Numbered from the stretch's first letter, positions 10,269 through 32,000 are shown. The stretch is 32,000 nucleotides of DNA from Crassaminicella indica (GCF_019203185.1 NZ_CP078093.1:2700389-2732388); one strand, 5' to 3'. Notes: generated by a model from the letters alone, not told the origin. A program made the numbers and translations.

Positions 10269-10367
10269 TGGAGTTCTTAAAAGCTTTTTAAAGGAATATG
10301 AAAAATGGAGATTAAGAGAGTAAATAAAAGATATTTTAATATTATATAGAGAGGGAGTCGAATATAT

Positions 10368-14387: not shown

Positions 14388-14398
14388 AAGGTGTTATA

Positions 14399-15268
14399 TT
14401 GAAAATATTTAACATTTATATGCTTATTATTACGATTCTTTTACAACTAACAGTAATTTTAATGTTTAATACATCTATTGAAACTGCTACATCCCTTGAA
14501 AATCTCAAAAGGTGTATACCATTTTTCAACTTATTAATAATGATTTTAACTTTTTTTGTTATTTTTTCTATAAAAAAAATAAATGAATATAGAAACAAAG
14601 AAATTGAAAATAAATTATTAAAAACCTACTTAAGTAATGTAGAAAGTATACTTACTTTATTTCGAAAACAAAGACATAGCTATATCAACCATATACAAAC
14701 CATAAAATCTATGAGCTATTTAGAAGAGTATAATGATTTAATAGATTATTTAGAAGGGATTTCAGAAGAATATAGAAATGTTTCTGAATTAATCAGAGTA
14801 GGAAATCCAGCTCTTACAGCTTTATTGAATATAAAAAAGGAAATTGCAGAAAAAAAAGGCGTGAATGTATATATTAAGTGTAAATACAAAACAAATTTTG
14901 AATGGATTAGACCTTGGGATCTTTGTGATATGGTAGGGAATTTAATAGATAATGCAATTGAAGGGGCTACGATACTCACTAATTCCAAAAAATGGATAAA
15001 AGTAAAAATCGATAAATCTGAAAATAAATATATCTTACAAATAGAGAATACAGGAAAATTAGATAAAAATATTCCTACAGAAGAGTTATTTAAAGCAGGT
15101 ATTTCTACTAAAAATGCGACCAGCCGAGGGTACGGACTATATATCGTAAAACAAATCGTTGAAAAATATCATGGAACTGTAAGCATAGAAGAAACAGAAG
15201 ATGAAACCGTATTGGTAACATTAGTGCTAATAGAAGGAGTACAAGAAAATGTTGAAAAGATTATCTGA
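14399..15268 (+). CDS. agrC: AgrC-like histidine kinase (2 TM helices, HPK10-type DHp and GHKL ATPase), the C-terminal half
   Basis: TTG start. H-box RKQRHSYINHIQTI, N-box DMVGNLIDNAIEG, G-box TSRGYGLYIVKQIV. Only 2 N-terminal TM helices, too few for a stand-alone AgrC sensor. Confidence 0.8.
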   Translation: MKIFNIYMLIITILLQLTVILMFNTSIETATSLENLKRCIPFFNLLIMILTFFVIFSIKKINEYRNKEIENKLLKTYLSNVESILTLFRKQRHSYINHIQTIKSMSYLEEYNDLIDYLEGISEEYRNVSELIRVGNPALTALLNIKKEIAEKKGVNVYIKCKYKTNFEWIRPWDLCDMVGNLIDNAIEGATILTNSKKWIKVKIDKSENKYILQIENTGKLDKNIPTEELFKAGISTKNATSRGYGLYIVKQIVEKYHGTVSIEETEDETVLVTLVLIEGVQENVEKII

Positions 15269-15887
15269 TACAATAGCTATTTACATAAGCAAAAATTTAA
15301 AAAGTGATAGGGATAAAATAGAGATTTATTCCTATGGACTACAAATATTTTTAGGAACAGCTTTCGAAATCATATTTATTATTATTACTGCTTATTTGCT
15401 TAATACCTTAAAATCTACAATTGTTGTATTAGTGTCTTTTATTCTTTTTAGAAGGTTATTAGGGGGGACTCACTGCACTATTTATAGAAACTGTTTTTTT
15501 GTAAGTGGGTTTAGTATGCTTTTATTAGGATTTATAGGTGATCAAGTAGTCTTATCATCTAAATACTTATTCGTTTTACTTGGATTAGCTTATATATTCT
15601 CTGTCATACAAACCATTAGATATATTCCAATGGGAACAGAGAAGAAAATGATAAAAAATTCAAATACTCGTTTAAAAATCAAAATACAAACAATACTACT
15701 TTTAAGTTTTTGGATGATCATCATTTATTTATTAAAAGATAAAGTTTCATCAAAATATATATTTTCTAGTTTATTAGGGGTAATTGGTGCATTTTTCTTT
15801 AGCACCCCTTTTAGTTATAAAATCATTAATCATTTAGAAATTTACTTGAATTTCTTAACAAAAGGAGGAAAAAAACAAAATGTTTAA
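15249..15887 (+). CDS. agrB: AgrB accessory gene regulator protein B (AgrD-processing membrane endopeptidase)
   Basis: MLKRLSDTIAIYISKNLK...IEIYSYGLQIFLG...FRRLLGGTHCTIYRNCF carries the catalytic His and Cys. Four or more TM segments. Overlaps the kinase stop by 20 nt and the agrD start by 8 nt. Confidence 0.85.
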   Translation: MLKRLSDTIAIYISKNLKSDRDKIEIYSYGLQIFLGTAFEIIFIIITAYLLNTLKSTIVVLVSFILFRRLLGGTHCTIYRNCFFVSGFSMLLLGFIGDQVVLSSKYLFVLLGLAYIFSVIQTIRYIPMGTEKKMIKNSNTRLKIKIQTILLLSFWMIIIYLLKDKVSSKYIFSSLLGVIGAFFFSTPFSYKIINHLEIYLNFLTKGGKKQNV

Positions 15888-16020
15888 ATCAATGAGAAGA
15901 AATTTATTAGCTCTTGTTGCTGGGGTAGTCACTATGGTAGCTATGACAGGTGTAAGTACTGCATGTACATGGGGAGTTTACGAGCCTGAAATACCTGAAA
16001 GTATTAGAAAGGAACTTTAA
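15880..16020 (+). CDS. agrD: AgrD autoinducing-peptide precursor (46 aa), below the ORF-track size cut-off
   Basis: RBS AAAGGAGGAA at 15861-15870. MFKSMRRNLLALVAGVVTMVAMTGVSTACTWGVYEPEIPESIRKEL* has an amphipathic N-terminal helix, a single Cys, and an acidic Pro-containing C-terminal tail (EPEIPE..KEL) like staphylococcal and clostridial AgrD. Confidence 0.8.
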   Translation: MFKSMRRNLLALVAGVVTMVAMTGVSTACTWGVYEPEIPESIRKEL

Positions 16021-16031
16021 TTTAAAAGTAT

Positions 16032-16742
16032 ATGATGAATATATTAATATGTGATGATGATCTATATACAAGAAAAATGCTAGAAAAAATAGTATCACAA
16101 AATCCTTTTGTAGATACTGTTTTTCTTGCAAAGGATGGCGTAGAAGCAATTAATATGATTAAAAATGAATCTATTGATATTGCATTAATGGATATTGATA
16201 TGCCTAATCTAGATGGCATAGATGCAGCAAAAATGATGAGTAATTTATCTTCTAAAACTAGATTTATTTTTATTACTGCGTATATGGAGCATGCTATTGA
16301 ATCTTTTAGCGTACATCCTTATGATTATCTTTTAAAGCCAATAGATATTTCAAAATTTAAATATACACTTAATAATCTTATAATCATTGTTATGGAGGAT
16401 TTTAAAGAGAATGGTATTAGAAAGATTACTATAAAAGATAAAAGTAAAATATCTGTTGTTCCACTAAAAGAGATATTATATTTTGAAAAGGTAGATAGGG
16501 ATGTATTGGTACATACTCAAAAAGAAGAGTATACCTTAAGTAAAACATTAACTGAACTAGAAGATAAACTTAATAGTAGTTTTTGTAGAGTGCATCAATC
16601 GTTTATAGTAAATATAGAAAAAATAAAGACAATTACAAATATGGGAAACAGATCTTATCAAATTGAATTTACAGGATCTGAAAAAACTGCTTTAATGAGT
16701 AGATATAAGTTTGAGAAGTTAAAGAAGATTGTAATTTTTTAG
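16032..16742 (+). CDS. agrA: LytTR-family response regulator (AgrA-like)
   Basis: Receiver domain ILICDDD...ALMDIDMPNLDG...FITAY. C-terminal LytTR-type domain ..ILYFEKVDRDVLVHTQKEEYTLSKTLTELEDKL..FCRVHQSFIVNIEKI. Confidence 0.85.
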   Translation: MMNILICDDDLYTRKMLEKIVSQNPFVDTVFLAKDGVEAINMIKNESIDIALMDIDMPNLDGIDAAKMMSNLSSKTRFIFITAYMEHAIESFSVHPYDYLLKPIDISKFKYTLNNLIIIVMEDFKENGIRKITIKDKSKISVVPLKEILYFEKVDRDVLVHTQKEEYTLSKTLTELEDKLNSSFCRVHQSFIVNIEKIKTITNMGNRSYQIEFTGSEKTALMSRYKFEKLKKIVIF

Positions 16743-17285: not shown

Positions 17286-18346
17286 TGACCCCCTATTATT
17301 GGACACTATCTTAAATTTTCTTAAGATAACATAGTATTTCAGCTTTTTCTAAAGTTGTCATGTAACTCTCGGTCTGCCCTTGACATTGAGCCTTTGTATT
17401 CATGATGTAATGCTCTTAAGGCAGCATTAAAAGTGAAAGAGCTTGCCTTGTTAATAGGCTATCATGCATGCCCTAAATATCAAGGGTACGCTCTGCCAGA
17501 CCTAAGTATAGCTTTTATAGCGCAATATGAACTTTCTCATTTGTATTCTGTAAATATTCATAATACTCATTTGGAGGCATAAACTTTGTAGATGAATGGA
17601 TTCTTTTCGTATTATATTTTTTGACGAACTCATTAACTTCTCTATAAGCTTGAGCATAATTTTCAAATTCATTGATTCCTAAACACTCATCTTCTAAGAT
17701 ACGATGATATGCTTCTATATATGCATTCATGTTTGGCGTATTATATGGAATTCTTTCATGTTCTATATTTAAATCTTTACAAGCAGTATTGTAAGCATTG
17801 CTAATATATTGAGGGCCATTATCTGATCGAATAATAGGCTTGCTTTTAACATCATATAATTGTCTTTTTAGTAATGCTGTTTTAATCACTCTAATTCCAT
17901 CTTCTGCTGTGCAACTAAGACCTATATGGTATGCAATAATGTTTCGATCAGCTACATCTATCATGCTCATAATGTAAAAAAATCTATCTTCGCCTGCTAT
18001 ATATCCATATTTTATATCTATTTCCCATAGTTGATTAGATCCTGTAACAATTCTATTTTTTGCGAGTTTTCTTGGATATTTTGGTTTGATTTTTCTTTGT
18101 TGTTTTAATATGTTCAGCTCTTTGCAAAGCCTGTATACTTTTTTCTTGTTTATGATTAAATTGCAATTTCTTCTCAACGCATATGTTAATTTTAAGTAAC
18201 CGTAGGAATATCCTTCGTCTTCAATAATTTGAATAATATATTCCTTGATTTGTTCATCGGATACCTTTTTCCCATTATTGGTTTTTGAATATCCTGGTAT
18301 AGCTCGTCCAGGAGCTTTACCTTTCGCTTGAGATTTTTTTGTCACG
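17286..18346 (-). mobile_element. IS3-family element, 5'-truncated (orfB 17515..18345 only; orfA and left end replaced by IS21)
   Basis: Terminus TGACCCCC at 17286. The orfB rve domain has WEIDIKYG.., SDNGPQY.., YNTKRIHSS... The annotated start is only a GTG one base from the IS21 terminus, so the reading frame is cut. Confidence 0.75.
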
Positions 18347-18435
18347 TGATAGTAGTGTTAATGTCAATACAAATTCCTCAAAAAAGGGAAGATTTTTTCC
18401 CCACCTAAAAAATATAAAAAAATAAATAATTGATT

Positions 18436-19230
18436 TTAAGTTTCAATCTCAGATGATTTTTTATTAGTTACTTCATTATTTTGAAACATAGACTTAATTA
18501 CACCTTCACGTTGTTTCATTCTATAACTTTCACCTTTAATTACAATAAAATGGCAATGATGTATAAACCTATCTAATATAGCAGTAGCTAATACTGGATC
18601 ATAAAAGATTCTTGCCCATTCTTCAAAAACTTTATTTGATGTAATTATTATTGAGCCTTTTTCATACCTTCTTGATATAATTTCATAAAAGTCATCAACA
18701 CTATTTTGATTAAGTTTTTTAAGTCCTAATTCATCCAATATTAGCAAATCTGGGCTTGTATAATATCTTAGTTTTTGCCTAAATGAATTATCAGCTCTTG
18801 ACATATATAGCTCTTCGAGCATTTCATTTACAGTTGTAAATACTACTTTATAGCCTTGTGTAATAGCTTTAAGACCTAGAGCTATTGCTAAATGCGTTTT
18901 TCCTGTGCCCGGAGGGCCTATTAATGCTATATTTTCTTTTTTACGTACAAATTCACAAGTACTAAGATTATACACAAACCTTTTATTAATTGTAGGTTGA
19001 TAATTAAAATTATACTCTTCTAATGTTTTATGCTGTGGAAATTTAGCTTTTCTAATTCTATTTTTATTGCTATTATTTTGTCTATTTAAGATTTCATCAT
19101 TTATTAATAATTCAAAAAATTCAATATATGACAAATCGCTTTTTATAGCTTCTTCATTTCTCGAATCAAGTGTTTTTACTATACCTGAAAGCTTCAGATT
19201 TTTTAATCTAGACATTAGCATATCATTCAT
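18436..19230 (-). CDS. istB: IS21 helper ATPase IstB
   Basis: Walker A GPPGTGKTH, Walker B LLILDELG, 264 aa. The start overlaps the istA stop. Confidence 0.9.
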   Translation of the reverse strand: MNDMLMSRLKNLKLSGIVKTLDSRNEEAIKSDLSYIEFFELLINDEILNRQNNSNKNRIRKAKFPQHKTLEEYNFNYQPTINKRFVYNLSTCEFVRKKENIALIGPPGTGKTHLAIALGLKAITQGYKVVFTTVNEMLEELYMSRADNSFRQKLRYYTSPDLLILDELGLKKLNQNSVDDFYEIISRRYEKGSIIITSNKVFEEWARIFYDPVLATAILDRFIHHCHFIVIKGESYRMKQREGVIKSMFQNNEVTNKKSSEIET

Positions 19231-20719
19231 ATTTAAACTCCCCCAAACTAGCTAGTTTATCATATTCTGCAAGATTCCTTGTAATATTAGTTGTATTTTC
19301 ATTGATATATGTTATATTTGTTTGAGTTGGAAAATCTATTATACCTTTCTCACAGATTCTCTTAATAATTTTATAAGAAAAAGCTCCATAAGTATTAGCT
19401 CTTTCACATGCTTTATCAATTATTTCATCATCATATTTTGTTCTTAAAGAAAGTATTCCAGAAATAGATTTATAATCATATTTTTTGTTGTTTGAATGCT
19501 TTATGAAGTTATCAAAGAACTTAAGAGCATTTTCTCCTATTTCAAGCATTTCTTCTCTTTGTCTTGACAATATTTGAGCACTTGTTATACTTTTACTATA
19601 AGGATAATGTTCATTATTTGTTATGTATTCGCCCTTTTTATCTTGACATAAGGTATGGAGGGCTATTTCTTTTTCTTTGTAGAATATTTTTAATATATTA
19701 TTTATCTCAATAGCTTCTATTTCTTGTCCTATATAAGCATATGGTACAGAATAATAATTAGCATCGTAGCTGATATGACAATTTGTATTTACAATACATT
19801 TAGTAGATTTAGATAAGATAAAATCTTTATTAGGGATAGGAATTAATTTTTCTTTTTCTATAGAGTTAAAAACTTCGGCAGGAACTTTTTTAGTTGTACC
19901 ATGTTTTCTTATGTTTGCAATATTTTCAAGCCATTCAGATAAAAATTCTTTAGCTTCTTCGTAATCTTTAAATTCTCGACCTTTAAAACAATTATCCTTA
20001 ACATATTTAACATTAGCTTCTACTTTGCCTTTATCCGTAGGAGTGTATACTCTACATGGCTGCGCCCAAAATCCATAATGCGAAGCAAATGATGCATAAT
20101 TTTTTTGCACTGTAGGTTCATAAAAATCAGCTTCTAAAATACCTGCTTTTAAATTATCTATTTTTACTGTTTCAGGTACTCCACAAAAATATTTAAAAGT
20201 ATTTTTGTGACAAGTAATAAAAGTTTTAACAGATTGGTCAAATACTATTTGAACATACATATATCTTGAATAACTCAATGTCATAACAAATATCCAAGCT
20301 TTTTTATGTCTGCCATTAACTTTTATTGTTCCTATATACCCAAAATCAACTTGAGCTTCTTCTCCAGGAAGAGAAGTTAATACCATGTAAGCTTTAGGTG
20401 GATTTTTCTTTATTCCAGCTATATATTTTTTTACAGTATCATAGCTTCCTTCATATCCATGTTCTCTTTGTAAATCTTGAAAAATGCGCTTTGCTGAAAG
20501 TTCTTTAGAAGTTTGAATATTGATATATTCTTTATATGGATCAAGTATTGAAGGATACGCTTTTCTTTCTACAGCACCATGTTTTTCAAGTTTTTCTAGT
20601 ACAGTTCTTACTGTTTTTCTGTCTATTTTTAACATTTTAGCTATTTGAGTTTTGTTATATCCTTTTTCAAATAAAGTATCTATTGTAGTATGCATTTCAA
20701 CCCCCAACATGTATTTCAT
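19223..20719 (-). CDS. istA: IS21 transposase IstA
   Basis: N-terminal HTH NKTQIAKMLKIDRKTVRTVL. DDE/rve core ..EEAQVDFGYIG..WIFVMTLSYSRYMYV...VKIDNLKAGI... 498 aa, uninterrupted. Confidence 0.9.
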   Translation of the reverse strand: MKYMLGVEMHTTIDTLFEKGYNKTQIAKMLKIDRKTVRTVLEKLEKHGAVERKAYPSILDPYKEYINIQTSKELSAKRIFQDLQREHGYEGSYDTVKKYIAGIKKNPPKAYMVLTSLPGEEAQVDFGYIGTIKVNGRHKKAWIFVMTLSYSRYMYVQIVFDQSVKTFITCHKNTFKYFCGVPETVKIDNLKAGILEADFYEPTVQKNYASFASHYGFWAQPCRVYTPTDKGKVEANVKYVKDNCFKGREFKDYEEAKEFLSEWLENIANIRKHGTTKKVPAEVFNSIEKEKLIPIPNKDFILSKSTKCIVNTNCHISYDANYYSVPYAYIGQEIEAIEINNILKIFYKEKEIALHTLCQDKKGEYITNNEHYPYSKSITSAQILSRQREEMLEIGENALKFFDNFIKHSNNKKYDYKSISGILSLRTKYDDEIIDKACERANTYGAFSYKIIKRICEKGIIDFPTQTNITYINENTTNITRNLAEYDKLASLGEFKYE

Positions 20720-20825
20720 CTCCCTTTGCAGACTTTATTTTATTAAACTACAAAGGGGTATTTTTTTCTATACAGATGGGGAATTTTCTTTCCCTTTTCC
20801 GGGTAATTAAATTCTACCACTAACA

Positions 20826-21232
20826 GTCTATTACAAAAAACAAATAGTGCCTTTTCAAAAGGATCTAGCTGAAACTGAGTTTGAACAATGATACTTAATC
20901 CATCAATACTTTTCCTAAGATCAGTAGCCCCACAGGCTAAGTATACTGTATCTATTTTATCTATATTTAACATGTCTTCATAATCGCTTCCAAAACGAAT
21001 GATAGACGATGTAGATGTAGTAGATACGTTTTTAGAAGTTTTTTCTTTAAGATTGACAGCATGAAATACCTGATGATCTTTCTTTAATATAGTTGATGGA
21101 TGCTAATCTTATTTTCTTTACAAAAAGATCTAATAGTTCCTTTATGTAAAGAAAATCTATTCAAATTTTGTTATCTGTTATTCTAGCAAAGTAAGGTACA
21201 AACTACTAGGCAGAAAATCTTTGACGGTTACG
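20826..21232 (-). mobile_element. IS66-family left-end remnant (terminus, deleted tnpA, tnpB N-terminus cut by IS21)
   Basis: 20826-20945 (rc) is identical by eye to 7534-7640 plus the missing N-terminal tnpB codons. The tnpA region has internal deletions relative to 13025-13351. The terminal ...ctttgacggttac is shared with 13441-13453. Track ORF 20743..20973 is a chimera across the IS21/IS66 junction. Confidence 0.8.
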
Positions 21233-21254
21233 CTCAAATTACATTTTTCACAAA

Positions 21255-21297
21255 CAAAAAAAGTCAGCCAAGAATATTTTATTATTCTTAACTGACT
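21255..21297 (-). terminator. rho-independent terminator candidate
   Basis: agtcagccaagaata / tattcttaactgact imperfect hairpin, with a T7 run on the minus strand (A-run 21256-21261 on plus), just downstream of the transposase fragment. Confidence 0.5.
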
Positions 21298-21306
21298 TAA
21301 ATTTTA

Positions 21307-21747
21307 TTAATGTGCCTTAACTAAATGACATTGCCCATTAAGATACTTATTTTCTCTTTTGTTAGCATGATCAAAGTGCTTAAAGTAGCAATCAAAACGA
21401 TCACCAAACTTGGCTTGTAATGTATCAGCAATAGTTAGAAATATGGTAGCATTCTTTAACGTTTTAGGAATCAATTATATTACAATACCTACGGTAATTC
21501 TAATTAGTTCTTCCATAGGGAAATGAACATAGGATAAAACGTAATATAGGGAATTTAAAGCTTTTCCACTATATTTTTTAATGAAATTTTCATATAAAAA
21601 TCGTATAGATCTAACTTCTTCAACAGAAGTAATGGCTAACATTAACCACAGAAATCCATCAAAGCTACGCTTTTTGAAAAGTGAGCAATATTTAAGTAAA
21701 TACTGTTGTAAAGTTTGAATAAATGAATATTTGGATATACTAATCAT
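21307..21747 (-). pseudogene. IS4/IS701-like transposase N-terminal fragment with in-frame nonsense codon
   Basis: ORF 21475..21747 continues in the same frame past TAA (21475-21477) as LIPKTLKNATIFLTIADTLQAKFGDRFDCYFKHFDHANKRENKYLNGQCHLV. This resembles the (I/L)DDT..K.G...........DH...GH region of such transposases. Only ~146 codons in total. Confidence 0.55.
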
Positions 21748-21887: not shown

Positions 21888-23531
21888 TTACCACCTATAC
21901 TCATTATATCCACCTTCAGGACCATTGTCTTTGTCATACCATTTATCTAATAATTCAAACCAGTTACCTACTTTATTTATTTCTTTATTTATTCCTTCTT
22001 TACACCATTTTAATTTTCCATAACACATGTCTCCAAGCGCTAAATATTTAGTTAAATCAAGAGGGCTATACCAAAATTGAGATTCAAAATGTCTATGGTA
22101 AACGCGATTAGAATAAACTTCACTATCACCTGATGGGAAGAAAATAGATAATCCATTTTTACCATCCTTAAATCCATCATAATCTTCTCCCCCATAAGAA
22201 TAGAGAATCATATCATCTACTCTATCCATAAGAGTTTGAGATTTACTATAGATATTCGATAAATTTGTTATAAGAATATCTTCATTTTGATTATATATCA
22301 CATCATAAACAGCAGTCTGTTGTTTTTCTATATATACTTCATTCATAACAGTATTAGGTTGTTTTTCATTATATACTTCATCCGCAACAGTTTTTGTGAA
22401 TTTATCACTATATTTTATTTCTTTTGCAAAATCATATAAATCAAATAATGGATAAAAAAGTTGACTAATTATATTATTCGAATAAAAATAATGCATAATT
22501 TTAGGATTACTTATGTTCCCTCTTAATTCTTCGATTTTTTGTTTCTCATCCTCAATAGCAACAACAAGACCATCTACTGCATTTTTAACATCTTTTACTT
22601 TGGATAAGTCATAACAAGACAAAGTTTGATTTGTAACAATATTTTTACAAGAATCTCTCTGTTCTTCAACGATGATTGCACCAATTTGAGCATTTGTTAT
22701 AGTTTTAGGAGAATAATATTTTTCATATCCCCCCAAAGTTGAATCCTTTTCATTATTGTGTCCATCTTTAGTTTGTAATCTGTTTAGAATCTTATCATAT
22801 TTCCAACCTTGTTCCCATTCAGCTGTAGCACAGCCCACCATAATATCAGCTTCAAATCCACCATTTCCTTTATAAAATTGATAAGCAAACTCTACATTTC
22901 CCATGTAGCAAGCATCTAAACCTAAAACATCTACAGATTGTTCTTTAGTTAGTACATCAGAAATCTCTCCCGTATATAAAGCATCATATCCATTTGTTTC
23001 ATCTGTACATACCATTTTTCTTTTTTCGTTTTTAGGATCTTTTCTTGGTCCTCCTCCATGATTAGAAAGAATCAATACATATTTATCAGCTGGGTATTTT
23101 TCTTTACAATAATCAATAAAATTTTTTAGTGTGTAAGCATCCCCCATATTAGCTTCAAATGTTGTAAAAATTGTACTTATTTTAGGAAATTGTTTTCCAC
23201 CATCTAACCTTTTAACTTCATTTGGATTGATCTTATATAATCTTGTATCATCAAAATCTTCTCCAAATACCTCTTGATCAGAACTATAGCTTTCATGTCG
23301 GTCTACTAACGCAATCAGATTAATTTCTTTAGTAACACCTTTTTTCATTTCTACAACGTCACTTAACAAATCTGGTTCAAGATCATTATCTGCATCGCAA
23401 TAGTACATTATAGTGATAGGTTTTTTTTCTACTAATAATTCTTTTGCATAAGCAAAGTTAAGATTTCCTAAAACTAGACATATCAATAGAACAACGGTCA
23501 ATATAGCATTATTTTTTTTATTTTTAATCAT
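21888..23531 (-). CDS. secreted C11-family (clostripain-like) cysteine peptidase
   Basis: Start set at MIKNKKNN (23531, RBS GAAAGGA). Signal peptide ..LGNLNFAYA|KE. C11 layout MYYCDADNDLE..., catalytic His in LILSNHGGG and catalytic Cys in LGLDACYMG. Confidence 0.8.
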   Translation of the reverse strand: MIKNKKNNAILTVVLLICLVLGNLNFAYAKELLVEKKPITIMYYCDADNDLEPDLLSDVVEMKKGVTKEINLIALVDRHESYSSDQEVFGEDFDDTRLYKINPNEVKRLDGGKQFPKISTIFTTFEANMGDAYTLKNFIDYCKEKYPADKYVLILSNHGGGPRKDPKNEKRKMVCTDETNGYDALYTGEISDVLTKEQSVDVLGLDACYMGNVEFAYQFYKGNGGFEADIMVGCATAEWEQGWKYDKILNRLQTKDGHNNEKDSTLGGYEKYYSPKTITNAQIGAIIVEEQRDSCKNIVTNQTLSCYDLSKVKDVKNAVDGLVVAIEDEKQKIEELRGNISNPKIMHYFYSNNIISQLFYPLFDLYDFAKEIKYSDKFTKTVADEVYNEKQPNTVMNEVYIEKQQTAVYDVIYNQNEDILITNLSNIYSKSQTLMDRVDDMILYSYGGEDYDGFKDGKNGLSIFFPSGDSEVYSNRVYHRHFESQFWYSPLDLTKYLALGDMCYGKLKWCKEGINKEINKVGNWFELLDKWYDKDNGPEGGYNEYRW

Positions 23532-23595
23532 TATTAAACATCCTTTCGTTTTGTTTAAAGTACACTGCAATTTATTAAATAATTCTTAATAAGCT

Positions 23596-24593
23596 TGATG
23601 TTAGTATAAAAGCATGAACACGAAAAGTAGGATATAATAACTATATCTGAAAGGAAGTGTTCACATGAAACAAAATGGAAAAAGATATGATGATGATTTT
23701 AAAAGAATGCTTGTTGATTTATACAATACCACCAATCATACCTACAAAAGTCTCGAAAGCGAATATAGCGTAACAGCTACAACAATTCAAAGATGGGTAA
23801 AGGATTTAACTCCTATCGATCCATCGGATGAAAATTCTATAAGCCCTCGTGAAAGAAAGCAAGCGCCGCTATGGAGCGCATAAAATCCATCAACAGATGA
23901 AGAAAGAGAAACTGCTTGAAACAATACCTAGCCTAAAAAGAGTTCAAAGATTCATGAAAAATATGGGTTTATTTGCTGTACTCATCAAACGATTTAAATA
24001 CAAGAATACCAAGACTACTAATAAAAATCTTCCAAATCTATTTAATCAAGATTTTTCGACTACTAAATTGAATCAGAAGTGGGTTGCCGATATAACTTAT
24101 ATCAATACAATTCATGATGGATGGTGCTATTTAGCTTCAATACTTGATTTACATAGCCAAAAAATTGTTGGCTATGAATTTACTAAGAAAATGGATTAAT
24201 CCATCGTTTTAAACGCATTAGATAAAACTATGCTTCGACAAGGAAAACCTAAAAATGTGATTATACATACAGATCGTGTTAGTCAATACCTAAGTAAAGA
24301 TTATATAAAAGCAATCGAAGGCTATGGAGCAAAGAGATCTTATAGTGCTAAGGGAAATCCTTATGATAATGCTGTAATCAAATCATTTCATGCAATTTTG
24401 AAAAAAGAAGAAATTTACCAAAATATTTATCGTTCATATGAAAAAGCTAATTTGGCTATATTTGAGTTTATTGAATCCTGGTACAACAATAAAAGAATTC
24501 ATAGCAGCATTGGATATCTTACACCAAATGAATTTGAAAAACTTGCTGCTTAAAATATCACACTTTTTGTGTCCAAATATTGACATAAGTCCA
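23596..24593 (+). mobile_element. IS3-family element, decayed (orfA truncated, orfB in 3 pieces, ~260 bp shorter than its relative)
   Basis: Ends TGATGTTAGTATAAAAGCATGAACAC... and ...GTGTCCAAATATTGACATAAGTCCA. Flanked by direct GCT (23593-23595 and 24594-24596). ORFs 23665..23883, 23849..24199 and 24230..24553 carry the HTH and rve motifs (WVADITYI, HTDRVSQY, YNNKRIHSSIGYLTP). Confidence 0.8.
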
Positions 24594-24646: not shown

Positions 24647-26437
24647 TTAAGACTGTTCATAGTCGCCTATTTGGATATTATATAATGTACTATAAATTCC
24701 TTCTAAATTCATGAGCTCTTCATGGCTTCCACTTTCCTCAATTCTTCCTTTTTCTAAAACAATTATATTAGCAGCTTGTTTAATAAAATTATTAAATCTG
24801 TGAGCTACAATAATACCTATTTTCTCTTTCAACAAATCATTATACATACTAGATAAATTGTACTCTGATATAGCATCTAATGCTGCATTAGGTTCATCTA
24901 AGATGTATATATCAGCTTCCTTTGCAAACGCTCTTGCTAAAGCAACTCTTTGCCACTGTCCAATAGATATTTGTTTACCATTATCAAACCAATACCCCAA
25001 CTGAACATCTATGTTTTTAGGTTCATTCTTTGTCAAATCTTGCAAGTTAAATCTATTACTAATTTCATTAATACGATTATCGTCTCGAATAATATCTAAA
25101 TTTCCATAGCCTATATTTTCTCTAAAAGTAGTTTCGAATTTAGCAAAATCTTGAAATAAAGTTCCTATTCTTCTTTGTAATACTGATTTATCTATTTCTT
25201 TCATATCAATTCCATTTATGTATACACTGCCTTCATAATCATCATAGAATCCCATCATAATTTTTATTAGAGTAGTTTTTCCACTTCCGTTTTTTCCTAC
25301 TATTGCAATAAATTCCCCTTTCCTAATGGTTAAATTAATATCTTTTAATACATAATCCTCATCTTCTCTATATTTATAATATAGATGTTCTATTTTTATT
25401 TCGTTTATTTGATCTATCTCTTTTAGAGTTGTTACTTTTCTTTTGTTTTTTAAATTCAAAAAAACATACAATTGATCTATAAAAATACTTTGTTTTTGTA
25501 TACTTGCAAACGACTCTAGAATTTTTTCAATATAAGATGTTAAATCTATAATCGTTCTAGTATAAGTTATAACATTTCCAATTAAAATTTCACCAATATA
25601 TCCGATATAAAGAACATAAGCAAACATAAGTGAGCTTAAAATATGTTCAAATATCCCAACAATTGATAAATATACTATAGATTGCTTTGCAATCTTTAAA
25701 TCTTGTAAATTAAAACTATTAATATAGTTTTTATATTTAGTTATAAAATAATCAAACAATTGATATGCTTTTAATTCTTTATAGTTCTCTCCATTCTTTA
25801 TAAGAAAATCATAGTACCATGCTTGTCTCTCCTGATTAGTTCTCGCTTTTATTATTTTAAATTCTTTTATGTTTATATTTTTAACTACAAAATATTTAAC
25901 AATTGGAACTATCAAAACAATTATAACAATCCAAGCTTTAAAATAAAGTAAAATAATTACATATGAAAACATAGTAATCAAAGTACTTGAAATATTAACA
26001 AACATGTTAAAATATGATAATAGCTTACCTTCACTTTCATATTGTGCTCGTCTAATTATGTCATAAGTTTCACTATTTTCATAATCCTTCAGCTCAAGAT
26101 TTGTTACTTTTCGTAATACTTCCTCTTTAATTATTAAATTAAATTTTAAACTAAACTTAGTATTAAAATATCCTACTAAACTTTGAAATATAGTTTGAAA
26201 TAAATCCACCCCTGCATAAAGAGCTATATAAACAAATACTTGTCTTATATTTTTTATTCCAAGTTGTATTAGATTTATAATTTTCTGCATTAATAGTAAA
26301 GAAACGGTAGGAAGTATACCCGTTACTATCGTAGAAATTAAAGTTACAGCAAAATATCTCTTGTCTACTTTATATATATACTTTATTGTTTTAATTAAGT
26401 TTTCCCAAATATTAGTAGTTGTTTCTTCTGGATTCAT
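24647..26437 (-). CDS. lanT: ABC exporter, fused TMD-NBD half-transporter (LanT-like, no C39 peptidase domain)
   Basis: Start set at MNPEETT (26437, RBS AGGAGA). Six predicted TM helices. Walker A GKNGSGKTT, signature SIGQWQRVALARA, Walker B IYILDEPNAALD. Same strand as, and contiguous with, lanC once the IS is removed. Confidence 0.7.
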   Translation of the reverse strand: MNPEETTTNIWENLIKTIKYIYKVDKRYFAVTLISTIVTGILPTVSLLLMQKIINLIQLGIKNIRQVFVYIALYAGVDLFQTIFQSLVGYFNTKFSLKFNLIIKEEVLRKVTNLELKDYENSETYDIIRRAQYESEGKLLSYFNMFVNISSTLITMFSYVIILLYFKAWIVIIVLIVPIVKYFVVKNINIKEFKIIKARTNQERQAWYYDFLIKNGENYKELKAYQLFDYFITKYKNYINSFNLQDLKIAKQSIVYLSIVGIFEHILSSLMFAYVLYIGYIGEILIGNVITYTRTIIDLTSYIEKILESFASIQKQSIFIDQLYVFLNLKNKRKVTTLKEIDQINEIKIEHLYYKYREDEDYVLKDINLTIRKGEFIAIVGKNGSGKTTLIKIMMGFYDDYEGSVYINGIDMKEIDKSVLQRRIGTLFQDFAKFETTFRENIGYGNLDIIRDDNRINEISNRFNLQDLTKNEPKNIDVQLGYWFDNGKQISIGQWQRVALARAFAKEADIYILDEPNAALDAISEYNLSSMYNDLLKEKIGIIVAHRFNNFIKQAANIIVLEKGRIEESGSHEELMNLEGIYSTLYNIQIGDYEQS

Positions 26438-26579
26438 AATTATTCTCCTATTCAACTAAATACATTAATATAAGTTGTTCATCTTATATTATAATAGTAT
26501 GCAAATTATCGTGTTTTGTATCTACCAACAATTATACTTAGTCCTACTAACTAAGTACAATAATTTTTAATGTGCTACC

Positions 26580-27840
26580 TGGGCTTATGTCAATATTTTG
26601 AACACAAAAAGTTTAACAGATTAAAAAGCTGACTTTAAATTATTCTCAAATTGGTCGGGAGTGATATAACCAATACTACTATGTATTCTATTTCTGTTGT
26701 ATCAAGACTCAATGAATTCAAAGATAGATTTTTTAGCTTCATTAAAATCTCTATACTTTTTATGATTAACTTCTTCTTTTTTTAATATTGAATGAGATGA
26801 TTCTATTGGAGCATTATCATAGGGATTACCCTTACTGCTAAAAGAAATAGATAATCCTAGACTTTTAACCTTTTTCATATATTCATAGCTAGTGTATTGG
26901 CTTCCTCGGTCAAAGTGAATGATAACTTGACCATTAGGTCTTTGGTTAAAATAAGCATTTTCTAAAGCTTTTATTGTTAATTCAGTAGTGATAGATTTAG
27001 AGAATGAGTAACCTATGATTTTTCTTGTATATAAATCCATTATTGATGCTAGGTAACACCAACCATCTTTAATAGTATAAATATAGGTAATATCAGCTAC
27101 CCACTTTTGATTTATACAAGTAGCTGTAAAGTCTCTTTTGATGATGTTTTTACCTATTATTTCATTACACTTAGAAGAATAATACTTAAATTTTTTATGA
27201 ACAATTGATCTAATACCTAGCTTTTTCATTAACCTTTATGTTCTTTTTAGACTTACTGACCATCCACGAGATTTTAGTATTTGTCTAATTTTAGGAGCAC
27301 CGTAACGCTTTTTACTATCTAGATAAACAGACATAATGGCTTTTTAGTTTTTCATTTTCAAGAGATCTGTTAGATTTTTCTCTGGACCTACGGTCATAGT
27401 AAGTGCTACGAGGTAGTTCTAAAATTTTACATAACAATTTAATATTATGTTTTTTCTTATTATCTTCGATAAAAGAAATTAATGATTGAATATCTATTTT
27501 TTCGTGAATATGGTTAAAGCCTTTTTTAAGATTTCAATTTCCTCCTTGATCTTTGCATTTTCCTTTTTCATCTCAGCTATATCTTTAGGAGTAATAGGTT
27601 CTTGATCTTCTACTTTAATTACTTTGTTTTCTTTAATCCATTTATAGATTGTTGTTCTAGTTACACCATATTCATGTTCTAACTCTGATACTGAACTACC
27701 AGAGTTATATAATTCAATAATTGTTTGTTTAAAATCTTCGTTGTATCTTTTACCATTAGTATTCATACGGACACACCCTTTCATCTAATTATAGTTTATC
27801 TTGTTAAACTAAGTGTGTCCATGATTCTATACTAACACCA
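26580..27840 (-). mobile_element. IS3-family insertion sequence (1261 bp), orfA intact, orfB inactivated
   Basis: Termini TGGGCTTATGTCAATATTTTGAACAC (26580) and ...ACTAACACCA (27840). Flanked by direct ACC (26577-26579 and 27841-27843). orfB has a premature stop before MKKLGIRS and a TGG-to-TGA nonsense at 26702 (FEFIES*YNRNRIHSSIGYITP). Confidence 0.85.
27494..27766 (-). CDS. IS3-family OrfA (HTH transposase subunit)
   Basis: MNTNGKRYNEDFKQTIIELYNSGSSVSELEHEYGVTRTTIYKWIKE plus a leucine-zipper-like tail. Start at 27766 follows AAAGGGTG. Confidence 0.75.
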   Translation of the reverse strand: MNTNGKRYNEDFKQTIIELYNSGSSVSELEHEYGVTRTTIYKWIKENKVIKVEDQEPITPKDIAEMKKENAKIKEEIEILKKALTIFTKK

Positions 27841-27973: not shown

Positions 27974-29272
27974 TTAATCGACCATTAATACTCTTCCATA
28001 CTCCATGCTTTCATGAATAACACCTAAAAGTGATAGTACAACTCCCATTGCTCCTTGTAATAAAGACAAATCATTTTCAAAATGATTTTTAATGATTTGA
28101 TTCATATCATAGCTAGTATCACTATTCTTATTAAATATATCAAGAATTGCATTTATATCTTTCTCAATAGTTTTAACAAAACGTTCATCTTTGGTATCCC
28201 TATAAGCCATCATTCTTATGCATAAAACACTAGAATACCCATGACATAAAATTGTTTCAAATAAATTATATCGATTTACAGGTTGATTGATTATATTAAT
28301 CAGATCTTTTTTATAAGTTTCCTCCTTTTGCGTATAACCCATATATTGAGCTGCTTTTTGCAACCCTCTTGCTATTCCTGTGTTACCATAACACCAACTT
28401 GCCATGGGAAGTCTTAAATTATCTGAATACTGTCCTTTGATAAAATTTTCAAAAGATAATTGCGTAGGCCATGCAGCAATATCATTACGGTATACTTTAA
28501 ATTGATCATAAATATCAAACAATGTGCTAATTGCATTTTCAATTCCTTCTACTCTTATTTCTTTATTATGTGCTTTAGTTAATGCCACTAATGGTCCTAA
28601 CATTCCATGAGATAAACCAAAATTAATATTTCCATTTGGAAACTCTAATTGTTCATCTTCTCTAGATAAATTTTCCTTAATAATATGAAAATTTATAATC
28701 GAATTATCCATATGCTCATGATAGTTAGTTAATTCAATAAGATATTTAATTAATTTTTCTAATTGCAAATTTTCCTCTAAATTCCATTCAAAATCTAGTA
28801 AAAAGTATACAAAACCAGATACTCCAGCAATAACATCATAATCGTTCATAAAAACATCATTTTTTCTTCTTAATCTTTCCACAAACTCAACAGCTTGCTC
28901 TAGAAAAAACTTATTTAATGTATTAGAGAATTTTGATAGATTTCCAGTTTTTTTATTAAATAAACTAACACAGAAACATTTATATCCAAATCCACCAATC
29001 ATACCAAGATTTTTTTCTGAAATACCATATGTTTCTATTTCCTGTTTCAATCCTTTACATAAGTCATATCCCATTTGTTCCCATTTATCTTTATTATCTA
29101 TTAGTGGATAGATCTCCGAAATTATCATTAAAAAATCACTATTATATATAGGATTTATAATTTCTAAATCATATTGTTCTTCAATGTATTGAAAAAAGCA
29201 ATTTAAAAACTCATTAACCCTATCCCTTGTATTTTCTGAAATATGTATATAATTATTTGTATCACCTATCAT
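27974..29272 (-). CDS. lanC: LanC lanthipeptide cyclase (class I)
   Basis: Zinc-ligand and active-site motifs GLSHGMLG, SWCYGNTGIARG and LCHGYSSVL, in the canonical order and spacing. The start overlaps the upstream gene stop by 11 nt. Confidence 0.9.
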   Translation of the reverse strand: MIGDTNNYIHISENTRDRVNEFLNCFFQYIEEQYDLEIINPIYNSDFLMIISEIYPLIDNKDKWEQMGYDLCKGLKQEIETYGISEKNLGMIGGFGYKCFCVSLFNKKTGNLSKFSNTLNKFFLEQAVEFVERLRRKNDVFMNDYDVIAGVSGFVYFLLDFEWNLEENLQLEKLIKYLIELTNYHEHMDNSIINFHIIKENLSREDEQLEFPNGNINFGLSHGMLGPLVALTKAHNKEIRVEGIENAISTLFDIYDQFKVYRNDIAAWPTQLSFENFIKGQYSDNLRLPMASWCYGNTGIARGLQKAAQYMGYTQKEETYKKDLINIINQPVNRYNLFETILCHGYSSVLCIRMMAYRDTKDERFVKTIEKDINAILDIFNKNSDTSYDMNQIIKNHFENDLSLLQGAMGVVLSLLGVIHESMEYGRVLMVD

Positions 29273-30023
29273 TATAAAATTCCCCCTCTTTTTTTAATCT
29301 TTGCATTTTTTTATTTTTAATAGCAAATTCTTGAAATGACTTACATTCTTTAATCCATTTCTGATCCCAATAATTCCATTCATACTCTAGTTGCCCAACA
29401 GCTATTTGTTTATCAATGAGAATACTATAATAATTTTGATAAAATCCAAAGTAATCTTCCAAAAACTTATTTGAGTATCCATAATTATTTTGTATAGAAT
29501 TTAAAAATTCAGCTGCACTTGTTTCTATAAACTCTTTAATTTTATCTCTCTTTTTAATAAAAACATAATTGCCTAAATTCTTAATACCTATCGACTCTTG
29601 TATTTCACACATATGTTCTTTTACAAACTCTTGTCCACTACTCATTGTAGTAGTTAATGTAAATCCTAATTTGCCAGCATAATTCATTAAATGGGCTGAA
29701 CTAAATATTCTATCCTCAAAAGTTTTCATAATTCCCGATATATTGTTAAAATAAACGGGACTAGCAAAAAACACAATGTCTGATTCTAATAATTTTTTTC
29801 TTATCTTAAAAAAGTCATCATGCTCATCTACTAAGCAAAATCCATTATCTAAACAATTTGAACATCCAAGGCAATAATTTATTTTATAATCTCTTAAACA
29901 AATTATCTCCGAGTCATAACTCGTATCTAAAATCTGAATTTTTTCCAAAATTCTTTTCGTTAACAAATTTGTAATAGAATTATTGTTATTACTACCAACA
30001 ACAGCTACTATTTTACATTTCAC
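29262..30023 (-). CDS. flavodoxin-fold NAD(P)H:FMN oxidoreductase-like protein (candidate lanthipeptide tailoring enzyme); not HFCD/LanD-like
   Basis: GTG start with AAGGAAG RBS. KIVAVVGSNNNNSIT (phosphate loop), CLGCSNCLDNGFC, DIVFFASPVYFNNISGIMKTFEDR are typical of the FMN_red/flavodoxin_2 family. About 100-aa C-terminal extension of unknown function. Confidence 0.7.
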   Translation of the reverse strand: MKCKIVAVVGSNNNNSITNLLTKRILEKIQILDTSYDSEIICLRDYKINYCLGCSNCLDNGFCLVDEHDDFFKIRKKLLESDIVFFASPVYFNNISGIMKTFEDRIFSSAHLMNYAGKLGFTLTTTMSSGQEFVKEHMCEIQESIGIKNLGNYVFIKKRDKIKEFIETSAAEFLNSIQNNYGYSNKFLEDYFGFYQNYYSILIDKQIAVGQLEYEWNYWDQKWIKECKSFQEFAIKNKKMQRLKKEGEFYNDR

Positions 30024-30151
30024 TATATCATCACTTCCTTATTACTACATGATTTTTTTAATAATTAATTTAGTAATAGTACATCCAAATGTTGTATGTG
30101 ATGTAATACTATATCTATTTATGGTTATTTTTTTTACTCCTTTTATTTGCA

Positions 30152-30176
30152 CAGTAGGTGATCAAAGGGGTCGTAA
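30152..30176. repeat. left arm of a perfect 25-bp inverted repeat (cagtaggtgatcaaaggggtcgtaa)
   Basis: Exact reverse complement of 30737-30761. Lies in the lanA2-flavoprotein intergenic region. GC-richer than its surroundings. Confidence 0.95.
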
Positions 30177-30221
30177 TATTTTATTACAGTTTAATTATAT
30201 AGTTCTACCTAATTATTTTAT

Positions 30222-30425
30222 TTAGCAGCGTGTACCTTCTCCTGGTTTAGCAGCATTACGACAAGCTGTCATATCACTTGGTGAACAATGAGTTGAAATT
30301 TCAGAACAATGTCTTTCTGATATATAAGTATAACAAAAAACATTAGCCGTCCACGCACGGCTAGTATTTTTATTATCAGTTTTAACTTTCTTTAAATTCA
30401 AATCAAAATCTTTAAATTTACCCAC
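30222..30425 (-). CDS. lanA: class I lanthipeptide precursor LanA2 (67 aa)
   Basis: GTG start with GAAGGAGAGA RBS. Leader MGKFKDFDLNLKKVKTDNKNTSR contains an FDLNL (FNLD-type) box at about -17. Core AWTANVFCYTYISERHCSEISTHCSPSDMTACRNAAKPGEGTRC has 5 Cys and 11 Ser/Thr. Confidence 0.85.
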   Translation of the reverse strand: MGKFKDFDLNLKKVKTDNKNTSRAWTANVFCYTYISERHCSEISTHCSPSDMTACRNAAKPGEGTRC

Positions 30426-30477
30426 AGTAATCTCTCCTTCATATGATTTAATTACATAATTTTATCTAACTATTTTT

Positions 30478-30684
30478 TTAGCAGCGTGTACCTTCTCCTG
30501 GCTTAGCAGCATTACGACAAGCTGTCATATCACTTGGTGAACAATGAGTTGAAGGATCAGAACAATACTTTCTTGATAAAACAGTATAGCAAGTAAGTGG
30601 ATTCATCGTCCAGTTACGAGCAGTATTTTTATTATCAGTTTTAACTTTCTTTAAATTCAAATCAAAATCTTTGAATTTACCCAT
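30478..30684 (-). CDS. lanA: class I lanthipeptide precursor LanA1 (68 aa)
   Basis: ATG start with AAGGGGGA RBS. Leader MGKFKDFDLNLKKVKTDNKNTAR. Core NWTMNPLTCYTVLSRKYCSDPSTHCSPSDMTACRNAAKPGEGTRC has 5 Cys and 11 Ser/Thr. Confidence 0.85.
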   Translation of the reverse strand: MGKFKDFDLNLKKVKTDNKNTARNWTMNPLTCYTVLSRKYCSDPSTHCSPSDMTACRNAAKPGEGTRC

Positions 30685-30736
30685 AGCAATTTCCCCCTTA
30701 TGATTTCTAACTACTATTATTGTTTTTTATTAACTC

Positions 30737-30761
30737 TTACGACCCCTTTGATCACCTACTG
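30737..30761. repeat. right arm of the perfect 25-bp inverted repeat (ttacgacccctttgatcacctactg)
   Basis: Exact reverse complement of 30152-30176. Lies in the lanB-lanA1 intergenic region. Confidence 0.95.
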
Positions 30762-30780
30762 AATTAAATATGCGGTACTT

Positions 30781-32000
30781 TTATTTTCTTTTTGTATACT
30801 TCCACTTTTCTATTAAATCATGTAAAGAATGTCTTATGATTGATAAACATTTTCCTTCGTATGCTGTATCACCAATCATACGATTGCAATACATATGATT
30901 CATAGAAAATATAATCTCTTTTTTGATATTTGTTGTTTTTTTCTTTTCAATCTGCTTTTCTAACTGTTTTTTGAATTCAAATAACATTAGCTGTCTTTTT
31001 TTATATACTTCTATTATTTTTAATAATCTTTTATCAATTTTTTCAACTTCTCCTTTTAATATGTATTCTGCGATTCTAAGATAATTTATCCTTTCTTTCT
31101 TAAATTCATCTCTATATTTATTTCTCAAATTCTCTTCATCTAAGATTTCAAGCAATTCAAATTCATCATGAGTTAGCTCTTTTAATACCGATATCATACC
31201 AACCATATATAACAGTTCTTTATCCTTTTCATTATCTAAATCAAATGAATTTAATATATTAATTACAAAAATGCTATCCGCATAAAAAAATTGTTCCGCA
31301 TATTCTATTAATTCTAATCCACCATATCTATTCACTTCTCTTTCGTATACATCAAATATAGTTCTATTAATTAAACGATTTTTTTGCAATTCAAAAATCC
31401 AAGACTTAATTCTATGTAATTTATTTAATGCTATATTTTCATTCTCAAATTTAAATCTTAGTCGTAGATGTTTTCCATTCTCATAATATCTAAGAAAAAA
31501 GAATTTCTCTAAATCTAGATCATCTAACAAACATGGTAATTCTTTTGTTAATAATTCATTTTCTTTATCTCCTAATCCATATAATTTCATATAAATCCAA
31601 CCATGGTCTCCTAAAGAAAAACGTTGACTCTTGTTTTGAATCATCCTATTGTTTTCTACAAAATCCTCTTTTATAGTCGATAAAAGTATTTTTTTATTTT
31701 CTTCATGTTGTATGAATGAAAAAACAAATTCTGCCATATAATTATTCTGGTCTAAATCCTCTACAATGGGATTGCTAAACATTTCAGTTTCGTGTAAATT
31801 CAATTCACCATTCTTCTTAACAGATGAATATATAATATCTAAGAACTCTTCATGTTTTAAATCAACTAATATTCGATGGTCTCCTTCACACAAACATACA
31901 TAGTCATCAATTTTATATTGGTGAATGACTTTATCAAAGCTTTTTTTGAACTTTTCTAAACTTTTCATATCAAAGTTCTCACTACTAAAATTCCAACTTT
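30781..32000 (-). CDS. lanB: LanB lanthipeptide dehydratase, C-terminal ~406 aa (end of glutamylation domain plus glutamate-elimination domain); 5' part outside window
   Basis: The frame stays open upstream of the track's first Met (..SWNFSSENFDMKSLEKF..) to the window edge. Lant_dehydr_C-type motifs GWIYMKLYG, FFFLRYYENGKHLRLRF, YEREVNRYGG, AEQFFYADS. Confidence 0.9.
   Translation of the reverse strand, partial: SWNFSSENFDMKSLEKFKKSFDKVIHQYKIDDYVCLCEGDHRILVDLKHEEFLDIIYSSVKKNGELNLHETEMFSNPIVEDLDQNNYMAEFVFSFIQHEENKKILLSTIKEDFVENNRMIQNKSQRFSLGDHGWIYMKLYGLGDKENELLTKELPCLLDDLDLEKFFFLRYYENGKHLRLRFKFENENIALNKLHRIKSWIFELQKNRLINRTIFDVYEREVNRYGGLELIEYAEQFFYADSIFVINILNSFDLDNEKDKELLYMVGMISVLKELTHDEFELLEILDEENLRNKYRDEFKKERINYLRIAEYILKGEVEKIDKRLLKIIEVYKKRQLMLFEFKKQLEKQIEKKKTTNIKKEIIFSMNHMYCNRMIGDTAYEGKCLSIIRHSLHDLIEKWKYTKRK

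Follow-up and report, generated by a model that had tools for sequence, protein, structure and literature searches.

Why do two neighboring lanthipeptide precursor genes agree almost perfectly at both ends and differ strongly in their center? This question is raised by lanA1 and lanA2 of Crassaminicella indica, whose products are on record as hypothetical proteins. They are located in a stretch of 32,000 nucleotides (NZ_CP078093.1:2700389-2732388), which is called the window here and on which all coordinates are based. An initial annotation of this DNA had proposed gene conversion at the ends of the genes or, alternatively, a two-component pair with a shared C-terminal module. The analysis favors another answer, with a probability of about 0.62: lanA1 and lanA2 would be two substrate genes of one class I machinery, and the mosaic would reflect a family-wide constraint acting on a young duplicate.

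Tandem precursor genes and their family

The genes and their parts are arranged as follows.

30478-30684, minus strand: lanA1, ATG start, precursor of 68 amino acids
30616-30684, minus strand: lanA1 leader, 23 amino acids, FDLN box, Arg at its end
30481-30615, minus strand: lanA1 core, 45 amino acids, 5 Cys and 11 Ser/Thr (counted by hand)
30553-30621, minus strand: divergent block of lanA1
30222-30425, minus strand: lanA2, GTG start, precursor of 67 amino acids
30357-30425, minus strand: lanA2 leader
30225-30356, minus strand: lanA2 core, 44 amino acids, 5 Cys
30297-30362, minus strand: divergent block of lanA2
30426-30477, minus strand: spacer between lanA1 and lanA2, 52 nt, containing the lanA2 ribosome-binding site

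Open reading frame (ORF) calls, a repeat search and a codon alignment confirmed the annotated tandem ORFs and the duplication of about 256 bp, and the annotated protein strings proved exact, including the five Cys per core and the two core lengths. The repeat search describes a direct repeat whose copies start 256/259 nt apart, and the spacer is homologous to the lanA2 3' flank (25/30 nt) and also to the lanA1 5' flank. The assignment to class I holds as well: separate lanB and lanC genes and a flavoprotein gene adjoin the pair, the FDLN box is found at residues 7-10 of the leader, and Ser/Thr residues are at least as many as Cys in the core.

The differences between the two copies are unevenly distributed. 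Leader codons 1-21 differ at 2/63 nt (ATG/GTG and TTC/TTT) and the last 24 codons plus the stop at 1/75 nt (AAG/AAA), whereas the center differs at 24/66 aligned nt and by one 3-nt codon indel, so that the peptides are 81% identical. Nonsynonymous differences affect about 20/52 sites in the center versus 0/105 in the flanks (Fisher p = 1e-11), and hence the clustering of amino acid changes is not due to chance. By the Nei-Gojobori method, each conserved block presents one synonymous and no nonsynonymous difference, while the center presents 4.2 and 19.8, respectively (proportions of differing sites pS = 0.31 and pN = 0.38; nonsynonymous to synonymous ratio, dN/dS, of about 1.35).

Concerning relatives, a word-indexed search of 5.8 billion proteins returned just the two paralogues and one metagenomic protein, a profile search of 1.84 billion cluster representatives returned 23 relatives, and the family profile run against the 5.8 billion proteins reached 54 clusters at 90% identity, a lower bound for the family. 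A contig scan with leader patterns alone returned one locus, and C. indica itself was not among its matches. The members come from Clostridia, Tissierellia and Peptoniphilus, with Clostridium pascui, C. minihomine, Peptoniphilus tyrrelliae and Clostridium sp. MSJ-11 among the genome-derived sources; where homologues are named, they are called "hypothetical protein" or, in one case, "Lantibiotic". Pfam gave no family-level match for lanA1 and just a chance-level one to PocR for lanA2 (E = 0.12). No NCBIfam model was matched above its cut-off, since lanA1 had no hit and lanA2 obtained 17 bits against TIGR03731 (cut-off 29.3), mainly through the leader (residues 3-32). The family motif was found in none of the 8 million papers searched, nor in the searched supplements of the largest lanthipeptide mining study, and nothing relevant was found on lanthipeptides of Tissierella or Peptoniphilus. 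The annotation had not recognized the core, and after these Pfam, NCBIfam, protein and literature searches that statement stands, for a new family and not for a singleton. Judged by their sequences, lanA1 and lanA2 belong to an uncharacterized class I lanthipeptide precursor family and are not orphans.

The score under the TIGR03731 cut-off and the absence of a CTPGC-type motif, which had been annotated correctly, place both peptides outside the gallidermin/nisin family. The nisin leader has 23 amino acids, carries FNLD at positions 6-9 and ends in PR. The C. indica system resembles the nisin/subtilin type in its separate LanB and LanC, in an ATP-binding cassette (ABC) exporter without a detected protease domain, in a 23-residue leader ending in Arg with F-D-L-N at 7-10, and in a first ring donor at core position 3. 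On the other hand, it differs in the longer core of 44-45 residues without the lipid II motif, in the position of lanA, which follows lanB instead of heading the operon, and in that no subtilisin-type LanP and no immunity gene, LanFEG and LanI included, were seen in the window.

All members of the family share the leader M-G-x-[FY]-x-D-F-[DN]-L-D-L (FDLD-type), whereas the length, sequence and Cys number of the N-terminal core vary so freely that it cannot be aligned. In most members, the core then continues with the C-terminal module [PS]-[ST]-x-C-S-[PAM]-S-D-M-T-x-C, after which 5-15 residues lead up to an R-C end. In the family alignment (A3), C48, D52 and C56 are invariant and S45, S49, S51, T54 and C68 nearly so. 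The mosaic of lanA1 and lanA2 matches this conserved/variable/conserved pattern and thus follows the constraint of the family. The proposed origin is a tandem duplication of about 256 bp, specific to this lineage, inside a lanA transcript unit bounded by an RNA helix (described below). Afterwards, replacements and one codon indel would have built up solely in the family-variable block, and the leader, as the part recognized by the enzymes, and the C-terminal module would have taken no replacement.

An independent pair of paralogues, P0048/P0049, is located on one metagenomic contig (L021, 4001-4228 and 5338-5553) with a CPBP gene between them. It presents the same mosaic, in which the leader end and the N-terminal core vary and a CFTFDGSNTCNCPSTDCSPCDM.TSCR module is conserved.

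Weighing the origin of the mosaic

Several observations weigh against the favored origin. The dN/dS near 1 in the center fits relaxed constraint as well as diversifying selection, and the noncoding parts of the repeat are about 75-83% identical versus about 98% in the conserved coding blocks. Moreover, lanA2 starts with GTG and contains a terminator-like hairpin, insertion sequence (IS) elements interrupt the cluster, and the window lacks both CPBP genes (putative immunity), traX, orf150 and the second flavoprotein gene of the best-matched complete cluster, that of C. pascui (L003).

The lower identity of the noncoding parts leaves some room for homogenization, and it would suit an old duplication in which gene conversion holds the two ends identical and the center escapes it. 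The identity of 98-99% of the coding flanks in DNA, synonymous sites included, and the pS of 0.31 in the center versus 0.07 in the flanks point in the same direction. However, when dN/dS was calculated, this synonymous contrast was not significant (p = 0.16), and it arises mostly (nearly all of it) from inferred paths through multi-hit replacement codons. Degenerate codons with a conserved amino acid are as often identical in the center (8/9) as in the flanks (41/43), so there is no positive sign that the center is older than the ends, as conversion predicts. Furthermore, the same conserved/variable/conserved mosaic separates species, where conversion cannot act; the family-wide pattern would explain what the annotation had attributed to conversion, which is disfavored and considered unlikely. 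The other observations could indicate that lanA2, or the whole cluster, is decaying and that the divergent center is drift in a redundant, poorly expressed copy. The hairpin concerned is the following.

30334-30363, minus strand: terminator-like hairpin in the lanA2 divergent block (codons 21-31), UAGCCGU-GCGUGG-ACGGCUA, then AUGUUUUUUG

It has a 7-bp stem, a 6-nt loop and a U tract, it is one of 2 sites found by a terminator scan versus 0.2 expected, and it is present in the minimum free energy (MFE) and centroid folds, with no equivalent in lanA1 or in the homologue of locus L001. This hairpin could act as a transcriptional attenuator after lanA1 or reduce the expression of lanA2. Since the cluster is broken by several IS elements and lacks genes compared with C. 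pascui, it may be inactive, and it is possibly degraded. Nevertheless, stop codons and frameshifts are absent from both copies, the 105 nonsynonymous flank sites present no replacement in either, and the Shine-Dalgarno sequence of lanA2 is good (GAAGGAGAG). In addition, lanA2 keeps the outgroup-like S-R-A-[W/F]-T junction and therefore is not obviously the derived copy. Decay is, like conversion, an improbable account.

An obligate two-component lantibiotic with a shared C-terminal module, the other option of the annotation, would be consistent with one unit encoding two different cores, each with an intact leader and module. Known two-component systems belong to class II and consist of two dissimilar peptides, usually with two LanM enzymes. 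In C. indica, one LanB/LanC set is found for two peptides with 81% identity. Moreover, two distinct precursors are not kept across related clusters, as a single lanA is found in the closest (C. pascui, L001, L002, L016) and in other loci (L004, L005), including the distant C. minihomine and Peptoniphilus; in C. pascui, L001, L002, C. minihomine and Peptoniphilus this single gene has been located inside the helix-bounded unit. Because most relatives have one lanA, the two-component pair is very unlikely, and LanA1 and LanA2 look like congeners of one pathway rather than an alpha/beta pair. This agrees with the favored reading of two substrate genes for one machinery. Tandem variant precursors are common in class I lanthipeptide clusters, for instance bsaA1/bsaA2 of S. 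aureus, mutA/mutA' of S. mutans and nsoA1-A4 of the Blautia nisin O cluster. There, too, a single enzyme set serves several near-identical precursors whose leaders are conserved and whose cores vary; the difference is that in C. indica the variation is confined to the N-terminal half of the core, followed by an identical 24-residue C-terminal module. Tandem variant precursors by themselves are thus fairly ordinary, in a new family within the well-known class I lanthipeptides.

A long-range helix around lanA

Both genes are enclosed by a 33-nt inverted repeat with a perfect 25-nt core and 544 nt between its arms, which are the sole two copies of this sequence in the window.

30729-30761, minus strand: 5' arm of the helix, perfect 25-nt core at 30737-30761
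30152-30184, minus strand: 3' arm of the helix, perfect core at 30152-30176

The 5' arm begins about 20 nt after the lanB stop codon and ends 44 nt before the lanA1 ATG, and the 3' arm begins 37 nt after the lanA2 stop. When the 636-nt region is folded (z = -5.2), the MFE and the centroid structure both contain the helix. The duplication took place inside the stem, and therefore the two genes share one helix.

This layout is typical of related loci, where the 5' arm usually begins at a distance of a few to about 20 nt from the end of the upstream gene, the loop contains the ribosome-binding site and the 3' arm begins 15-60 nt after the stop codon. The arms were located as follows.

L001: 15-41 and 343-369
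L002: 404-438 and 739-773
L003 (C. pascui): 9920-9952 and 10258-10290
L004: 9962-9980 and 10222-10240
L005 (Peptoniphilus): 9964-9979 and 10271-10286
L016: 4228-4257 and 4538-4567
L009, L011, L013, L019, L020 and L021: helix also present, two in L021

In L021, each of the two paralogues split by the CPBP gene has its own helix. Helices of 15-46 bp with a score of at least 14.5 were found in 16/21 lanA cases versus 1/68 other genes of the same loci (the score is strand-symmetric; controls have a mean of 9.1 and a standard deviation of 1.8). Among the five closest loci the arms are homologous, 88% of the cells are paired and 7/33 pairs have changed on both sides; none of 500 shuffles reached the covariation score, and pairing in slid controls was 27-47%. 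Distant loci have arms that are complementary in spite of their unrelated sequences. Pairing is thus kept, with compensatory changes and beyond the controls, as in a conserved RNA structure. Furthermore, the helix positions that are not Watson-Crick pairs on the sense strand comprise 31 G·U and 6 A·C, an asymmetry that indicates RNA rather than DNA recombination sites.

The inverted repeat might alternatively be an invertible DNA switch (inverton) by which the precursor genes are turned around. In Clostridia, such switches are operated by recombinases whose genes are located elsewhere in the genome, and a perfect 25-bp inverted repeat around a 544-bp segment would be suitable for one. Nevertheless, the strand asymmetry just described is unexpected for DNA sites, for which a strand-symmetric repeat would be found, and neither the seven compensatory pairs of the five homologous loci nor the pairing kept between unrelated arms of distant loci fits it. 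Besides, no invertase-type recombinase was found among the window ORFs scanned, where integrase-core (rve) hits correspond to IS transposases. An inverton is therefore the least probable of the alternatives considered.

The RNA helix is probably an mRNA processing or stabilizing stem (RNase III-type) that isolates and protects the precursor mRNA within the operon. A promoter scan detected no sigma-70-like site in the interval from lanB to the 5' arm, and its total number of sites was no higher than in shuffles. In Rfam, the region 29900-31000 matched no family and gave a chance-level miRNA hit alone, and nothing was found in the literature describing such a helix or RNase III in connection with lantibiotics. 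The likeness is to the RNase III processing stalks of rRNA and to the 5'/3' stabilizing stems of mRNAs, which also are long near-perfect duplexes with a gene in the loop; the difference is that the lanA stem encloses one or two small peptide genes within a biosynthetic operon.

Modification enzymes, cluster context and predicted product

The gene order in C. indica is lanB-lanA1-lanA2-flavoprotein-lanC-(IS)-lanT, all on the minus strand.

30781-32000, minus strand: lanB, C-terminal 405 codons, frame open to base 31998 and running past the window end
29262-30023, minus strand: flavoprotein of 253 amino acids, flavin mononucleotide (FMN)-reductase family, LanJB-like (PF03358, E = 5e-19)
27974-29272, minus strand: lanC cyclase (PF05147, E = 4e-43)
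26702-27784, minus strand: IS3-family element inserted between lanC and lanT, at the position of traX in C. pascui
24647-26455, minus strand: lanT-type ABC exporter (ABC_tran and ABC_membrane)

LanB matched PF14028 and PF04738, with E = 2.9e-42 for Lant_dehydr_C, and the domain search detected no C39 peptidase domain in the exporter. In C. pascui the order is agrA-HK-agrD-agrB-lanB-lanA-CPBP-flavoprotein-flavoprotein-lanC-traX-ABC-orf150-CPBP, and the C. indica cluster is a rearranged version of it, with lanA2 in place of the CPBP gene and the first flavoprotein gene. The identities with C. pascui are 67% for LanB (over its residues 626-1029), 72% for LanC, 78% for the exporter, 69% for the flavoprotein and 47-53% for the LanA peptides; the enzymes change more slowly than the precursor peptide.

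The annotation had noted that the T-R-C end would allow a very small C-terminal ring or a modified C-terminal Cys. The first option was rejected: almost all relatives have another residue (V, L, I, A, N, G and others) in place of the Thr of "GTRC", while the terminal Cys is nearly invariant. Because some members have Q, K or S instead of Thr54, the two near-invariant Ser residues of C-S-x-S-D are inferred to be the best candidates for pairing with Cys56 and Cys68.

The second option, an aminovinylcysteine (AviCys)-type modification, was also rejected, given that the flavoprotein belongs to the wrong family and that its occurrence does not follow that of the terminal Cys. It is a PF03358/PF02525 protein with an FMN-reductase fold and not an HFCD (PF02441) protein. 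The best match by both sequence and fold is S. pneumoniae SP1951 with bound FMN (TM 0.78/0.85), followed by FMN, quinone, azo and flavone reductases, and no HFCD structure is present among its 50 best fold matches. Nothing relevant was found in the literature on SP1951/1SQS or on pneumolancidin with a flavoprotein. The flavoprotein family comprises 41 clusters from Clostridia and Tissierellia, and homologues are located in lanB-lanA-(CPBP)-flavoprotein-lanC clusters (five contexts, including the window). The enzyme is not tied to the terminal Cys, because it occurs with a peptide ending in CGKKK in one cluster and is missing in two clusters with peptides that have an RC end. Since it is not an EpiD-type decarboxylase, D-amino acids are likelier than a modified C-terminal Cys.

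In this regard, PF03358 is the family of the LanJB reductases, which convert dehydro residues into D-amino acids, and LanJB-type genes occur in class I clusters, where no D-residue was seen (Walker et al. 2020, PMC7268733). As of 2024, D-residues had been reported mainly in class II, with one class V case (PMC11519912). The C. indica flavoprotein combines PF03358 with a lan cluster context, and it resembles the LanJB reductases, such as BsjJB of bicereucin, in this family membership, with a fold of FMN-dependent C=C/N=N reductases; by family, fold and cluster context it is a candidate LanJB enzyme. It differs from the characterized LanJB enzymes, which act in class II (PMC11519912), in its class I context and in a CX2CX2CX5C motif.

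The residues of this motif (C51, C54, C57 and C63) are invariant in 22 homologues with 37-100% identity and absent from SP1951. This invariance suggests an Fe-S cluster in the flavoprotein, probably of the [4Fe-4S] type. Iron-sulfur flavoproteins (Isf) of anaerobes have a compact Cys motif, and the C. indica protein resembles them in the PF03358 flavodoxin-like fold with four such conserved Cys and in its origin from a strict anaerobe. It differs in that no Isf structure is among the top PDB matches and in a C-terminal helical extension of about 90 residues, common only to SP1951. C. pascui has two tandem flavoprotein paralogues (L003, 11287-12845), 57% and 69% identical to the C. indica enzyme, both with the four Cys.

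The sequences show the gene anatomy, the family membership, the constraint pattern, the enzyme families and the RNA helix, whereas the chemistry, ring pattern, activity and expression of the pathway are predictions. LanB would dehydrate Ser/Thr residues and LanC would close up to five thioether rings, in which Ser26/Ser28 (core numbering) likely pair with Cys33 and the terminal Cys, and Ser22 with Cys25. The FMN reductase, probably with its [4Fe-4S] cluster, may turn some of the approximately six remaining dehydro residues into D-Ala/D-Abu. LanT would export the product, with the leader cut after Arg23, and the outcome would be two congeners with a common C-terminal module and different N-terminal rings.

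Further downstream and beyond the cluster, the window contains the following features.

23849-24553, minus strand: IS remnants (domain search)
21888-23570, minus strand: clostripain-like (C11, Arg-specific) peptidase (TIGR02806, E = 8e-160)
17515-21747, minus strand: further IS elements (IS701 fragment, IS21, IS3)
13920-16742, plus strand: agr-type quorum-sensing module
within this module, plus strand: histidine kinase, possibly split into a 155-aa ORF and a 289-aa GHKL ORF
15249-15887, plus strand: AgrB
15880-16020, plus strand: AgrD-like 46-aa ORF, containing ...STACTWGVYEPEIPE...
16032-16742, plus strand: LytTR response regulator
10368-11954, plus strand: S41 peptidase ORF
7932-9190 and 9650-10021: transposase fragments (IS66 family, DDE_5), upstream of the agr region

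Both LanA leaders end in Arg23, and the Arg-specific clostripain homologue is located downstream of lanT, beyond the IS remnants. Its role as leader peptidase is speculative; the gene has no counterpart in C. pascui and is not conserved among related clusters. Agr or LytTR genes also adjoin the clusters of C. pascui, L002 and L016, and in the Peptoniphilus cluster an S41 peptidase gene (10317-11357) is found directly 3' of lanA. The window as a whole contains an unusually high number of IS elements, and a megablast search of 29000-32000 against PLSDB gave no plasmid match.

What raises this locus above routine is the presence of a LanJB-like, probably Fe-S-containing flavoprotein in a class I context together with a conserved long-range RNA helix around the precursor genes. 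It is possible, though proposed here only tentatively, that the lineage-wide duplex is a device for lanA excision or stabilization that sets a high precursor to enzyme ratio, and that these clusters make the first class I lanthipeptides with D-amino acids, by means of an Fe-S LanJB-type reductase. If so, cleavage by RNase III, for example, would leave a lanA mRNA with paired ends; no post-transcriptional arrangement of this sort was found described for RiPP clusters (those of peptides made by the ribosome and then modified) in the literature searched. The helix would then offer a testable answer to how one operon yields far more substrate peptide than enzyme. In the same way, the putative FMN/Fe-S reductase could extend the introduction of D-amino acids to class I systems and to anaerobic electron donors. 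Finally, the precursors represent an unstudied family of scaffolds, with at least 54 sequence clusters in anaerobes, including gut-associated Clostridium and Peptoniphilus, whose fixed C-terminal module and naturally diversified N-terminal half provide a ready set of variants for structure-activity work.

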